A stretch of DNA of 32,000 bases. It comes from Cereibacter sphaeroides 2.4.1. GTDB taxonomy: Bacteria; Pseudomonadota; Alphaproteobacteria; Rhodobacterales; Rhodobacteraceae. How positions within the stretch are numbered: position 1 is the stretch's first letter; the number at the start of each line of letters is the position of its first letter. The stretch covers positions 2,760,001 through 2,792,000 of the forward strand of contig NC_007493.2 in assembly GCF_000012905.2 (NCBI RefSeq), given 5' to 3'. Below the pieces are notes generated by a model that searched no databases, was not told the origin of the DNA, and was given only the letters and a program-made list of their open reading frames with translations. Below are positions 22,463-29,185 of this stretch, piece by piece. The position numbers were made by a program, and so were the translations under genes.

Positions 22463-24526
22463 TCAGGCCCTGCGGCCGAAGCGCCCCTCGCGGAGCCAGG
22501 CGCCGAGTGCCAGGCCCGCGGCCAGCAGAAGATAGAGCCAGCCCGGCAGCAACGCCGCCACCCGCACATCCTGCGTGACATGGGCGCCGCGCGGCGTGAT
22601 CCCGATCCAGCCGCGGCCCGCCGCCACCCGCCCCTCGCGCACCGAGCGGATGTCCGGCGCGCCGTCCTCCAGCCGGAGGGTGCCCCCGTTGGTGGGCGCG
22701 ATCACCGGGGCGAGCTTGTCGCCGCTGGCGATGGTCTCCTCGAACTCGCGCGGCGCCGACGGGCCGACGGCGATCACCGCCTTCTGCTCGCCCTGCGCCA
22801 GCCGGTAGACCCCCATTTCGGGCGCCTCCCAGGTGACGGCCCAGCGCCCGGGCGCGGCTTCCTGCATGGGAAGCGCCGTCTCGGTGCCGTCGGGGCCGGT
22901 GACCGTGACATCGCCCGGATCCTCGCCGATGGTGCGGCGCGTAACGGTCATGGTGGCGCCCTCGGCCGAGGCGACCAGTGCCTCCTCCTCGAGGTCGGGC
23001 TCCTTCATCATCCAGTGCGCGAGCCGCCGCAGCAGTTCGAGCTGCGGCCCGCCGCCCTCGTAGCCCCGGCCCCAGAGCCAGATCTGGTCCGAGGCGAGCA
23101 CGGCGATCCGCCCCTCGCCCACCCGGTCGAGGACGAGGAGCGGCCGGTCGCCCGCCCCGTTCATCACCACCTGCCCCGAGGTGGCGGAAAGCTCGATCTG
23201 GCGGAACCAGCGGCCCCAGCCGCCTTCGGGCGCCTGTGCCTCCAGCCCCTGCGTCACGGGATGCTTGCGGCCGATGTCGGTCAGGGTCGGGCGGAAGCCG
23301 CCCTCGATCACCCGGCTCGTGGCCTGCACCGGCATCACGTCGGCCAGAGGCGAGCGCCAGAGACTGTCGGCCGAGCCGAATTCCGGCCCCGCAGCCACCA
23401 GCACCGTGCCGCCGTTGCGCACATACTCCCGCACATTCTCGAGGTAGGAGGTCGGCAGGATCCCTCGCAGCCGGTAGCGGTCGAAGATGATGAGGTCGAA
23501 CTCCTCGATCTTCTCGACGAACAGCTCGCGCGTGGGAAAGGCGATCAGCGACAGCTCCGAGACGGGGATGCCATCCTGCTTCTCGGGCGGGCGCAGGATG
23601 GTGAAATGCACCAGATCCACGGACGCATCGGATTTCAGGAGGTTGCGCCAGACCCGCTCGCCCGCGTGCGGCTCGCCCGAGACGAGCAGCACCCGCAGCC
23701 GGTCGCGCACCCCGTTGATCTGGACGACCGCCGAATTGTTGCGGTCTGTCAACTCGTCGGGCGAGGCCGCGACCTGAAACTGCAGCACGTTCATGCCCCC
23801 GTGCGGCAGCGTCACCGGCAGCTCCAGATCCTCGCCCACCGGGACGGTGAAGGTCTGCGGTTCGCCCCCGTCGATCGAGACCACGAGATCCGCCGATGTC
23901 CCCGCCGAGGCCGGGACCTGTCCCTGATCCTCGATCCGAAGCGTGAGCGACACGGGCTCGCCCAGAATGGCGAAGGCCGGCGCGTTGCGGATTACGAGCC
24001 GCCGATCCCAGTCCTCCTCGTGGCCGGTCAGCAGCACATGGAGCGGCGCGGGCATCTGCGGCGCGAGCTCGAGATCGTGGACCTGCCCGTCGGTGATGAG
24101 GATGGCGCCCGCCACCCGCGCCCGCGGCTCTTCGGCCAAGGCCTCGGAGAGCGCGGTCATCACCAGCGAGCCCTCGTCGCCCTCGCCGTCGCCCACCCGG
24201 ACCACGCGCAGCTCGGTGTTGCCGAGCGCCCGAACCTCGGCTTCGACGGCGGCCAGCGCCGCGGCACTCTGGTCCGCCCGGTCGCCGATGCGCTGGCTTG
24301 CGCTCTCGTCCACCACCGCGATCACGATGTCCGAAAGGGGGGCGCGGTCTTCCTCCTGCAGGGCCGGATTGGCCAGCGCCAGAAGCAGCACGCCCAGCGC
24401 CAGCCCGCGCAGCCACCAGCCCGAAAGCCCCCGCCAGAGCGCCACCGCCACCATGAGGCCGCCCAGCGCGGCCAAGGCCCAGATCCCCGCCCAGGGCAGG
24501 ATCGGGTCGAAGACGAGTCCGGTCAT
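22463..24526 (-). CDS. membrane protein with vWA-like (DxSxS) domain and GATase1/ThuA-like central domain; fourth gene of the MoxR operon
   Basis: Lies in the frame of track ORF 22463..24622. The start is ATG 24526 (MTGLVFDPILPWAGIWALAALGG), overlapping the upstream stop (ATGA, 24523-24526). There are two N-terminal TM helices and a MIDAS-like IAVVDESASQ (DESAS at 24296-24310). The central segment is LRVLLVSGEPHAGERVWRNLLKSD...VHFTILRPP. A C-terminal TM anchor (LLPGWLYLLLAAGLALGAWL) closes the protein. Confidence 0.8.
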   Translation of the reverse strand: MTGLVFDPILPWAGIWALAALGGLMVAVALWRGLSGWWLRGLALGVLLLALANPALQEEDRAPLSDIVIAVVDESASQRIGDRADQSAAALAAVEAEVRALGNTELRVVRVGDGEGDEGSLVMTALSEALAEEPRARVAGAILITDGQVHDLELAPQMPAPLHVLLTGHEEDWDRRLVIRNAPAFAILGEPVSLTLRIEDQGQVPASAGTSADLVVSIDGGEPQTFTVPVGEDLELPVTLPHGGMNVLQFQVAASPDELTDRNNSAVVQINGVRDRLRVLLVSGEPHAGERVWRNLLKSDASVDLVHFTILRPPEKQDGIPVSELSLIAFPTRELFVEKIEEFDLIIFDRYRLRGILPTSYLENVREYVRNGGTVLVAAGPEFGSADSLWRSPLADVMPVQATSRVIEGGFRPTLTDIGRKHPVTQGLEAQAPEGGWGRWFRQIELSATSGQVVMNGAGDRPLLVLDRVGEGRIAVLASDQIWLWGRGYEGGGPQLELLRRLAHWMMKEPDLEEEALVASAEGATMTVTRRTIGEDPGDVTVTGPDGTETALPMQEAAPGRWAVTWEAPEMGVYRLAQGEQKAVIAVGPSAPREFEETIASGDKLAPVIAPTNGGTLRLEDGAPDIRSVREGRVAAGRGWIGITPRGAHVTQDVRVAALLPGWLYLLLAAGLALGAWLREGRFGRRA

Positions 24527-28172: not shown

Positions 28173-29185
28173 TGAGCGGCCCAGTCGGCCGAGCCCGCAC
28201 CCATCTGCCGGGTCACCACCCGCTCGATCACGCCGGCGAGCGACTCGCCCCGCGCCCGGGCGGCGAAGTTGAGCTGCATCCGGTGGGTGAGCACCGGCCG
28301 GGCCAGCGCCGCCACATCCTCGACCGAGGGCGCGAGCCTGCCCGACAGGAGCGCGCGCGCCCGCACGGTCAGCATCAGCGCCTGCGCCGCGCGGGGGCCG
28401 GGACCCCAGGAGAGGACCTCGCCGAGGCCCGCCCCCTCGACCTCGCCCGGGCGGCAGGCGCGCACGAGATCGAGGATCGCCTCGACCACCGCATCGCCCA
28501 CCGGCATCCGCCGCAGCAGGGCCTGCGCCGCGATCAGCTCCTCGCCGGTGAAGACCTGATGCACCTGGGCATCCTCGGCGCCGGTGGTGGCGATCAGGAT
28601 CTCGCGCTCGGTCTCGCGGTCGGGATAATCCACATCCACCTGCACGAGGAAGCGGTCGAGCTGCGCCTCGGGCAGGGGATAGGTGCCCTCCTGCTCGATC
28701 GGGTTCTGGGTGGCGAGCACATGGAACGGCCGGCCGAGCGGGCGGTGGCGGCCCGCGATGGTCACCTCACGCTCCTGCATCGCCTGCAGCAGCGCCGACT
28801 GGGTGCGGGGGCTGGCGCGGTTGATCTCGTCGGCCAGCAGGAGCTGGCAGAAGATCGGCCCCTCGATGAAGCGGAAGGCGCGCGCGCCGTCCGCGCCCAT
28901 GTCGAGCACCTCGGAGCCGAGGATGTCGGCGGGCATCAGGTCGGGCGTGAACTGGATGCGGTTGCCCTTGAGGCCCATGACGGTCGAGAGCGTGTCCACG
29001 AGCCGCGTCTTGCCGAGGCCCGGCAGGCCCACCAGCAGCGCATGCCCGCCGCAGAGCATCGCGCCGAGCACCAGCTCCACCACCCGGTCCTGCCCGATGA
29101 ACCGCCGCGAGATGCTGGACTTCGCCAGCGCGAGCTTCTCCTCGAGGGCTTCGATCTCGGCAACCAGTGCAGTGGCGTCGGCCAT
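28169..29185 (-). CDS. MoxR-family AAA+ ATPase (AAA_3)
   Basis: A 338-aa ORF with ATG 29185 preceded by GGGGAGAG. Walker A is GLPGLGKT. Walker B and sensor are [52 protein letters not shown] is typical of MoxR. Confidence 0.95.

Follow-up and report, generated by a model that had tools for sequence, protein, structure and literature searches.

The closest described relatives of the locus analyzed here are the cmdA-cmdD genes of Rhizobium leguminosarum (RL3499-RL3502; Vanderlinde et al. 2011, J Bacteriol 193:2684, as cited in PMC5118466, PMC5700661 and 10.1101/551135). According to the passages that cite this work, mutation of the operon causes envelope dysfunction and morphology defects, and the operon interacts genetically with ttpA (10.1101/551135; PMC5700661). 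RL3499 and RL3500 were impaired on complex medium in transposon sequencing (Tn-seq; PMC5118466). More distant relatives are the Bat operons of Bacteroides and spirochaetes, which encode MoxR, DUF58, BatA, BatB, BatC, BatD and BatE (PMC5700661, PMC3557215). We investigated a 32,000-nucleotide stretch of the Cereibacter sphaeroides 2.4.1 genome (contig NC_007493.2, positions 2,760,001 to 2,792,000; hereafter the window), which carries on its minus strand four consecutive genes for a MoxR ATPase, a DUF58 protein and two membrane proteins of 925 and 687 amino acids. We are highly confident that this locus, RSP_1024 and the next three genes, is the C. sphaeroides copy of the cmdABCD (RL3499-RL3502) operon. 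The locus itself is not new: Rhizobium mutants of this conserved operon have published phenotypes, and in C. sphaeroides RSP_1024 has been described as a regulated gene.

This assignment is based on protein similarity and on the regulatory region. The four proteins of R. leguminosarum bv. viciae BIHB 1148 are collinear with those of the window and show 59, 38, 40 and 46% identity, respectively, over their full length. Based on species, biovar and gene products, we infer that the BIHB 1148 genes correspond to RL3499-RL3502 of strain 3841. An earlier interpretation made from the nucleotide letters alone (the sequence-only reading) had pointed to a homologous four-gene operon in R. leguminosarum linked to envelope and cell-shape defects. 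Because the four proteins are 38-59% identical over their full length, this link is upheld: the paper exists, and the bv. viciae record carries the homologous genes.

In C. sphaeroides, RSP_1024 is a direct target of the OmpR-family envelope regulator CenR, with the 15-bp motif TCACGATCATTTGTG (PMC9275681 Table 1). The window contains one exact match to this 15-mer, with none expected by chance, at positions 29263-29277 of the minus strand, 78-92 nt upstream of the moxR ATG, which identifies moxR as RSP_1024. The CenKR supplement lists another motif for RSP_1024, TGCACATCATTTTGT, which the window does not contain even when three mismatches are allowed. The published chromatin immunoprecipitation (ChIP) peak position for RSP_1024 (278100) is inconsistent with RSP_1000 at 2758300 and should probably read 2781000 (PMC9275681). 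RSP_1024 showed 1.7-fold ChIP enrichment with CenR(D56E) and log2 expression changes of +0.85 in cenR(D56E), -0.56 in ΔcenK and -0.84 in cenR(D56A), in agreement with positive regulation by CenR; partners in the regulon include tolQ, surA, mlaC, dsbC, an L,D-transpeptidase, lytic enzymes, rpoH1 and msrA (PMC9275681). Expression of the moxR operon depends on CenR. In the supplementary data for D56E, RSP_1023 (+2.11) and RSP_1022 (+1.37) are up and RSP_1025 (-0.72) is down (PMC9275681), which fits a tentative assignment of the window genes to an operon from RSP_1024 to RSP_1021, with RSP_1025 as the divergent gene. RSP_1024 is also induced by singlet oxygen, at the levels of both RNA and translation (PMC3688512; PMC7074977). 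The sequence-only reading had called this the least understood block of the window, a description that does not hold for a published CenR regulon member and stress-induced gene of the same organism.

The operon begins with moxR (28169-29185, 338 amino acids), which has an ATG start and the Shine-Dalgarno sequence GGGGAGAG. It is followed on the same strand by the DUF58 gene (27300-28172, 290 amino acids, GTG start), the gene for the 925-amino-acid membrane protein with BatA_N and DUF4159 domains (24523-27300) and that for the 687-amino-acid membrane protein (22463-24526). Translation of these four minus-strand intervals gave uninterrupted frames. Neighboring genes overlap by GTGA at 28169-28172, TGATG at 27298-27302 and ATGA at 24523-24526. 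All coordinates and motifs claimed earlier were reproduced. A clear Shine-Dalgarno sequence is present at moxR only, and the other three starts are placed on the preceding stop codon. The overlaps suggest translational coupling, as had been proposed; the fixed stoichiometry proposed along with it does not follow from an overlap.

To describe conservation, we used the best 80 genome loci, all from Rhodobacterales, together with loci of Azospirillum and Parvibaculum (82 loci). Orders beyond Rhodobacterales were reached by profile search and contig look-ups, and through chromosomal replicons that are filed as plasmids in PLSDB. The order of the four genes is invariant in the best 80 loci as well as in Azospirillum and Parvibaculum, and the same gene set and order is found in Sinorhizobium meliloti and R. 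leguminosarum bv. viciae. Altogether, the operon was seen in 60-plus Rhodobacterales genomes. Within the 82-locus set, the 4-nt overlap recurs between moxR and the DUF58 gene in 53/67 loci and between the two membrane protein genes in 46/77, and an overlap of 4 or 1 nt joins the DUF58 gene to the 925-amino-acid protein gene in 57 of 71. Because the junction overlaps recur and four alphaproteobacterial orders all keep the same gene order, chance alone does not account for the arrangement: the four genes form an ancient co-linear unit tied by overlapping start and stop codons. The 925-amino-acid protein shares 99% identity with a protein of Cereibacter sphaeroides, and the 687-amino-acid protein is 99% identical to its counterpart in a Cereibacter johrii locus. 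A full-library search with the latter retrieved 4146 clusters (50% identity) at E<=1e-3, 991 of them at E<=1e-30, and its top matches are full length with 38-56% identity.

Profile searches against Pfam and NCBIfam recovered the domains named in the sequence-only reading, namely AAA_3, DUF58, BatA_N/TIGR02226 and DUF4159. The first protein matches AAA_3 (1.6e-57, 193.5 bits, cutoff 27) and AAA_lid_2 (5.5e-13, 48.9 bits, cutoff 22.7), and its closest solved relative is a Cytophaga MoxR structure (PDB 2r44, 1.3e-61). Its Walker A motif GLPGLGKT (residues 53-60) is encoded at 29006-29029 and the DE of Walker B at 28826-28831, both on the minus strand. GxPGxGKT, LxADEINR and the sensor 1 motif ATQNP are invariant among 67 homologs. 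The proposed AAA+ motor is present and belongs, by AAA_3, to the MoxR family (MRP-type), and sequence analysis shows its catalytic motifs to be intact.

The DUF58 gene, which overlaps the moxR stop codon, is adjacent to moxR in 67 loci. Its product matches DUF58 (PF01882; 1e-26, 94 bits, gathering cutoff 23.4) and has no transmembrane (TM) segment, hydrophobic anchor or signal peptide; a sequence search of the PDB found no solved relative. We predict that it is the cytoplasmic VWA-fold adaptor of the usual MoxR pairing. The sequence-only reading had ascribed to it a DxSxS motif of the metal ion-dependent adhesion site (MIDAS) type. A complete DSSRS is indeed encoded at 27885-27899 (minus strand), with S179-D180-F181 at 27630-27638 (minus strand). 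Among 69 homologs, D92 and D180 are invariant (69/69 each) and S96 is present in 61/69, and position 94 is Ala in 28, Gly in 23 and Ser in 18. Since this middle position varies, the full DSSRS is not a conserved feature.

The 925-amino-acid protein combines, as stated earlier, a BatA_N double-TM N-terminus with a C-terminal DUF4159 domain, based on matches to Pfam BatA (PF07584; 2.4e-20, 73.2 bits, cutoff 25.9), TIGR02226 (4.4e-16, 58.9 bits, cutoff 23.05) and Pfam DUF4159 (4.7e-55). Between these, the order is a VWA-fold domain, a β-sandwich, a weak GATase1-like region, a third TM segment and a signal-peptide-like fourth one. In the AlphaFold2 (AF2) model (mean predicted local distance difference test, pLDDT, 67), residues ~90-210 (26671-27033, minus strand) resemble integrin I-domains, CMG2 and the TFIIH VWA domain, with weak but consistent Foldseek values of 5.6e-3 to 2.7e-2 and TM-scores of ~0.45-0.5. 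The end of its strand β-1 carries the degenerate MIDAS V99-D-G-S-W-A104 (26989-27006, minus strand). Column counts from 71 homologs uphold the earlier description of this site as degenerate: D100 is present in 68/71 and W103 in 71/71, position 102 is Ser in 41, Thr in 16 and Gly in 13, and A104 is never replaced by Ser. The site aligns with the DESAS motif of the 687-amino-acid protein (hhalign E 1.3e-3, 19% probability), and the poorly modeled middle region of the larger protein weakly matches the GATase1-like domain of the smaller one (1.4e-3).

Two further elements of this protein stand out. The 32-residue loop of the BatA_N hairpin, residues 29-60 (27121-27216, minus strand), is predicted to be cytoplasmic and, among the same 71 homologs, contains the near-invariant residues R29, P32, P33, P35, F40, P41, L45, L46, G48, L49, D51, [DE]52, [ED]53, D57, [RK]58, T59 and P60, as well as the motif TPWW. 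It is a candidate docking site for DUF58/MoxR. The second element lies in front of the DUF4159 domain, which is preceded by hydrophobic segments at residues 615-637 and 649-661. Residues 638-665 (25306-25389, minus strand) resemble an internal Sec signal peptide, with an Arg-rich n-region, a 13-residue hydrophobic core and the sequence A663-R-A665|Q666, in which A665 is invariant and Q666 nearly so. A small-x-A|Q/D/E sequence also precedes DUF4159 in the Azospirillum, Parvibaculum and Rhizobium homologs, four orders in all. By these features, the second hydrophobic segment resembles a signal peptide more than a TM helix. Such a segment in front of DUF4159 makes release of this domain possible: signal peptidase I may cut the 925-amino-acid protein, which would free DUF4159 into the periplasm. 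Alternatively, the segment may be left over from a fusion to a secreted protein. The DUF4159 domain itself (residues 687-905; 24586-25242, minus strand), predicted to be periplasmic and ending in the invariant tail NYKSDQVHVPALLERLG, matches PDB 4i66 by sequence profile (2.4e-15) and by fold (Foldseek, 1.8e-7).

The 687-amino-acid protein gave Pfam matches near threshold, DUF7408 just above it (4e-6, 27.3 bits vs 27) and GATase1_like below (3.6e-5, 23.9 vs 27). Its AF2 model (pLDDT 76.5) shows a double-TM hairpin (residues 12-52, with the two helices modeled at 12-51) similar to the BatA_N hairpin but with no model match, a compact α/β VWA-like domain with the MIDAS motif (61-170), a CARDB-like β-sandwich (173-273; Foldseek 4.4e-6), a GATase1-like domain (277-490; Foldseek 6e-8 to 3soz, STM1381, and 2.8e-6 to the IFT52 N-terminal domain) and a C-terminal TM segment (656-683, modeled as a helix at 662-683). 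The protein is thus anchored at both ends, as the sequence-only reading had it. Profile matches in the PDB include 3soz (3.3e-5), 2gk3 and 3rht, and filamin (5e-3), the latter in agreement with an Ig/filamin-like domain at residues 516-587. The first MIDAS motif, D73-E-S-A-S77 (24296-24310, minus strand), follows predicted strand 66-73, and T145-D146-G147 follows strand 138-145; D146-G147 (24086-24091, minus strand) and G119-S/T120 are its partner motifs. Among 79 homologs, D73, S77, T/S120, D146, G147, H150 and D151 are all invariant (79/79) and position 75 is Ser in 66 and Thr in 13. The MIDAS residues are also invariant in 41 homologs of 36-55% identity. The DESAS motif noted earlier is therefore part of a complete signature, and by these sequence comparisons only the 687-amino-acid protein keeps a complete and fully conserved MIDAS in this operon.

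The description of this protein as "vWA-like" needs some qualification. No Pfam VWA model matched either membrane protein at E<=0.01, and a Pfam scan of their isolated VWA-like slices gave no match. Two homologs of the 687-amino-acid protein, scanned in the same way, reached VWA_2 below threshold (0.0096-0.046), and hhalign of DUF58 against the VWA slice gave 0.026. Fold-level similarity to VWA by Foldseek was obtained for the 925-amino-acid protein only; in the smaller protein the domain, with ~110 residues, is shorter than a full VWA domain, and the top Foldseek matches are dominated by the other domains. Because no significant sequence similarity to VWA models was found, we term this domain VWA-like by motif and predicted topology: motifs, predicted secondary structure and sub-threshold profiles fit the earlier description, and a significant match is missing. 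Both membrane proteins contain, in this order, a double-TM hairpin, a VWA-type domain, a β-sandwich and a GATase1-like domain, so that residues 1-640 of the larger one and the smaller protein look like paralogs by architecture. Comparisons of isolated slices by hhalign were not significant for the β-sandwich, for the Ig domain and for DUF4159 against the GATase1-like domain.

To orient the two proteins in the membrane, we compared family-level counts of Lys plus Arg with those of Asp plus Glu in each segment. One arrangement fits every segment: the short N-terminal tails and the large domains lie outside, and the inter-helix loops and the C-terminal tail of the 687-amino-acid protein lie inside. 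In the larger protein, residues 29-60 contain on average 5.3 Lys plus Arg, compared with 1.1 after the second TM segment, and residues 636-645 have a net charge of +1.5; in the smaller one, the net charge is +2.3 for residues 31-40 and +1.9 for the Arg-rich C-terminal tail. Neither protein contains cysteine (family means of 0.11 and 0.27 per protein, respectively, vs 3 in MoxR), and this absence fits an oxidizing compartment. The VWA domain of BB0173, a BatA-type protein, faces the periplasm by experiment (PMC5700661). By topology rules and by analogy to this mapped relative, both hairpins are probably oriented N-out, which would place the large domains in the periplasm. The cytoplasmic face would then consist of short loops and tails, the acidic 32-residue loop of the 925-amino-acid protein being its sole long element. 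The sequence-only reading had suggested a complex that faces the periplasm and is attended by an AAA+ protein in the cytoplasm, and this picture agrees with the positive-inside counts, the near absence of cysteine and the BB0173 topology.

Based on these observations, we favor the explanation that the operon encodes an envelope-maintenance module, and give it as a whole an even chance of being correct. The two membrane proteins would together build a scaffold in the periplasm, with its anchor in the inner membrane. The MIDAS of the 687-amino-acid protein could hold a divalent cation and clamp a carboxylate of a periplasmic partner, for example an envelope protein or the peptide of peptidoglycan. 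Because both proteins lack cysteine, their GATase1-like and DUF4159 domains would act as non-catalytic binding modules. On the cytoplasmic side, a MoxR hexamer could grip the hairpin loop of the 925-amino-acid protein through DUF58, with ATP driving the assembly of the membrane complex or a switch between its states. DUF4159 might be released, or hinged, at the conserved signal-peptidase-like A-x-A site, and expression of the operon would be tied to envelope homeostasis via CenR. We regard this specific docking and switching mechanism as tentative and rather doubtful; it is weakest at the proposed contact of DUF58 with the loop, since the MIDAS of DUF58 is relaxed in the Rhodobacterales lineage. 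A bolder and improbable version would be an integrin-like inside-out machine, in which an ATP-driven pull on the loop toggles the grip of the periplasmic MIDAS and the 925-amino-acid protein is a polyprotein from which DUF4159 is released. If true, ATP would control the grip of the inner membrane on peptidoglycan or on an outer-membrane partner.

Several points weigh against an envelope-maintenance module of this kind. The topology was derived from charge counts, the AF2 models were built from shallow alignments of 47 sequences with identities of 72% or more and are only of mediocre quality for the larger protein, and the sequence-based VWA assignment of the smaller protein is, as described above, below significance. 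The variable position 94 of the only partly conserved DUF58 MIDAS weakens the idea that this site clamps an acidic residue of the loop. Finally, RSP_1024 was non-essential in Tn-seq (PMC9275681), and in the available literature we found no mutant phenotype for this operon in C. sphaeroides.

Among the alternatives, a periplasmic enzyme fares best, though we consider it unlikely: a hydrolase or amidase whose substrate would be peptidoglycan peptides or some other polymer of the envelope, with MoxR and DUF58 serving only to fold or metallate it. The fold does belong to the class I glutamine-amidotransferase-like superfamily, the 687-amino-acid protein has many invariant polar residues (H307, D344, D349, H422, D480 and H504 among them), and other MoxR proteins mature metalloenzymes. 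R. leguminosarum mutants reportedly fail on glycine- or peptide-containing media. However, without cysteine in either membrane protein, canonical Cys-His-Glu amidotransferase or DJ-1-type chemistry is impossible, and a catalytic class I glutamine amidotransferase can be ruled out for lack of the nucleophilic Cys. The nearest structures (STM1381, the IFT52 N-terminal domain, GH42-type accessory domains and 4i66) have no known catalysis, and a cytoplasmic chaperone could not directly fold periplasmic domains.

Still less probable, in our view, is an inverted topology in which the VWA domains of both membrane proteins are cytoplasmic and engage the MoxR hexamer directly through their MIDAS, on the model of RavA-ViaA or CbbQ-CbbO; the membrane proteins themselves would then be the substrates or adaptors. 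Such an arrangement would agree with canonical MoxR systems, which pair the ATPase with a cytoplasmic VWA protein, and with the location of the best MIDAS of the operon in the 687-amino-acid protein. The positive-inside counts in every loop and the Arg-rich C-terminal tail favor N-out instead; the signal-peptide-like A-x-A segment before DUF4159, the essential absence of cysteine and the Ig and CARDB-type β-sandwich domains also argue against it, as does the periplasmic VWA domain of BB0173 (PMC5700661). Moreover, the role of cytoplasmic VWA partner is already filled by DUF58.

We judge a module for aerotolerance or oxidative-stress defense, as implied by the Bat name, to be similarly improbable. 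Induction of RSP_1024 by singlet oxygen (PMC3688512; PMC7074977), the presence of rpoH1 and msrA in the same CenR regulon and the link between the B. fragilis Bat operon and aerotolerance (as cited in PMC5700661) speak for it, but an envelope-repair function would equally predict stress induction. This reading is weakened by Leptospira biflexa, in which deletion of all bat genes caused no oxidative-stress phenotype (PMC3557215). In addition, the two membrane proteins contain no redox motif and no cysteine, and the phenotypes ascribed to the R. leguminosarum operon in the citing papers concern envelope and cell shape. Lastly, a MoxR-vWA conflict system of the ternary MoxR-vWA-effector kind (anti-phage or programmed death), to which only a weak secondary Pfam match of the ATPase to bpMoxR points (8.4e-13, compared with 1.6e-57 for AAA_3), can be dismissed because PADLOC gave no matches for five proteins and, in four orders, the operon keeps a strictly vertical core-genome synteny with DUF1285, the CCA-adding enzyme and polA; moreover, no effector domain is present and the base composition equals that of the flanks.

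Divergently from moxR lies a DUF1285 gene (29268-29834, plus strand; Pfam DUF1285_N and DUF1285_C; PDB 2re3, 2.8e-82), whose ATG (29268-29270) is overlapped by the CenR site. It occupies this position in 64 of 67 moxR-containing loci with a spacer of 69-87 bp, and is likewise divergent in Azospirillum, Parvibaculum, Rhizobium and Sinorhizobium; in the relatives' loci it was located at 3422-4000 (L081), 3408-4043 (L082) and 2373-2996 (L083, NZ_CP022567.1). DUF1285 may belong to the same regulatory unit as the operon. The structure paper on this family reports a link to NUDIX and none to MoxR (PMC2954208). Directly downstream of the CenR site lies the putative promoter TTGCCA-N-CATAGT (TTG-N17-CATAGT), at 29223-29250 of the minus strand, that the sequence-only reading had proposed. 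Eight Rhodobacterales genera share the conserved block TCACGATCATTTGT...CTTTTTGCCATTTGTGCC, with CTTTTTGCCATTTGTGCC at the putative promoter, and the CenR site is conserved too; a σ70 consensus scan of 22300-29500 called no promoter. The octamer CATTTGTG occurs twice on the minus strand within 29239-29277, at 29263-29270 and, 24 nt away, at 29239-29246, the second copy within the putative –35 region.

At the other end of the operon, the last gene converges with a DUF599 gene (21663-22460, plus strand), their stop codons being 2 bp apart (22458-22465). No terminator-like hairpin was found by a scan of 22300-29500. The glycolate oxidase genes glcDEF, which in the window lie at 17735-21650 on the minus strand, are frequent companions of the operon in Rhodobacterales. 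Outside Cereibacter, DUF1285 is followed by a CoA-pyrophosphatase/NUDIX gene and then the CCA-adding enzyme. In Azospirillum, Parvibaculum, S. meliloti and R. leguminosarum bv. viciae, these genes occupy one strand, and the other carries MoxR, DUF58, BatA+DUF4159 and the ~690-amino-acid protein. Two of the records used, R. leguminosarum pSK03 (NZ_CP022567.1, 408 kb) and S. meliloti "pSymB" (CP090106.1, 3.7 Mb), are PLSDB plasmid entries with core chromosomal genes, both carrying leuA, the CCA-adding enzyme and the MoxR operon, and look like mislabeled or misassembled chromosomal replicons. In CP090106.1, the fourth operon gene has no listed coding sequence and matches in two pieces. The G+C content of the window is ~71%. 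Elsewhere in the window, an ECF-type σ factor gene (Sigma70_r2) is followed by one for a large vWF_A/VWA/YfbK_C protein (13326-15859, plus strand), which has canonical Pfam VWA matches and is unrelated to the operon. Nearby envelope and stress genes encode an OmpA-family and BON protein (7110-9137, plus strand), an HSP20 small heat-shock protein (16112-16699, minus strand) and a trypsin-like peptidase (16883-17734, minus strand).

Few bacterial gene clusters that still lack a mechanism are as widespread as the MoxR-DUF58-BatA-type operons, and Alphaproteobacteria, Brucella and rhizobia among them, need the cmd version for a normal envelope and cell shape. In the literature searched on DUF4159, the cmd genes, MoxR/ChvI and BatA/BatB/MoxR, we found no mechanistic study; our results themselves are unlikely to surprise a specialist. 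What we add, as hypotheses, is a map of the domains, an account of which MIDAS motifs are intact and which degenerate, the topology argument, the cytoplasmic loop, the signal-peptide-like segment and the DUF1285 neighbor. These narrow the problem to three targets: the invariant periplasmic MIDAS, the invariant cytoplasmic loop and a possible internal signal-peptidase site. The C. sphaeroides copy resides in a genetically tractable model organism with a known regulator, CenR, and point mutants at the three targets could reveal how an ATPase serves proteins across a membrane.

How does this locus compare with known systems? Cytoplasmic MoxR-VWA pairs such as RavA-ViaA, CbbQ-CbbO and NorQ-NorD, as well as Rea1/midasin, likewise have an AAA+ ring of the MoxR/midasin lineage encoded beside a VWA-fold partner, whose MIDAS should grip an acidic client residue. 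Unlike in these pairs, the best MIDAS is here predicted to lie across the membrane from the ATPase, and the cytoplasmic partner is a DUF58 protein with a relaxed MIDAS. The fold of residues 277-490 of the 687-amino-acid protein and of the C-terminal domain of the 925-amino-acid protein is that of the GATase1-like/GIFT-type proteins STM1381 (3soz), the IFT52 N-terminal domain (5fmr) and the DUF4159 protein Hoch_4089 (4i66), but the window proteins are, unlike these, membrane-anchored and multidomain.

With the R. leguminosarum operon, the locus shares MoxR, DUF58, a ~930-amino-acid BatA_N+DUF4159 protein and a ~690-amino-acid membrane protein in the same order, the divergent DUF1285 gene and cysteine-free membrane proteins. 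The large bv. viciae protein carries a degenerate VDNSWA and the 689-amino-acid protein DRSQS, compared with VDGSWA and DESAS here. The Rhizobium DUF58 protein has a full DMSPS; in most of its Rhodobacterales counterparts the middle serine is missing. The downstream neighbors differ, and the regulator is reportedly ChvG, compared with CenR in C. sphaeroides.

The label "Bat-like" in the sequence-only reading holds for MoxR, DUF58 and the BatA N-terminal hairpin: as in Bat operons, MoxR is followed by DUF58 and then by BatA-hairpin membrane proteins with a VWA-type domain that faces, or here is predicted to face, the periplasm. It does not extend to BatB, nor to BatC (TPR), BatD and BatE (SH3), which have no equivalents in the window, where the neighbors are DUF599, glcDEF, DUF1285 and polA; the loci of the other orders show the same four-gene limit. 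Unlike those of Bat proteins, the VWA domains are so divergent or truncated that the Pfam VWA models do not match them, and the β-sandwich, GATase1-like and DUF4159 domains of the two membrane proteins are absent from BatA and BatB. The locus is, accordingly, a distant and reduced relative of the Bat operons, without BatC, BatD, BatE and canonical VWA domains.

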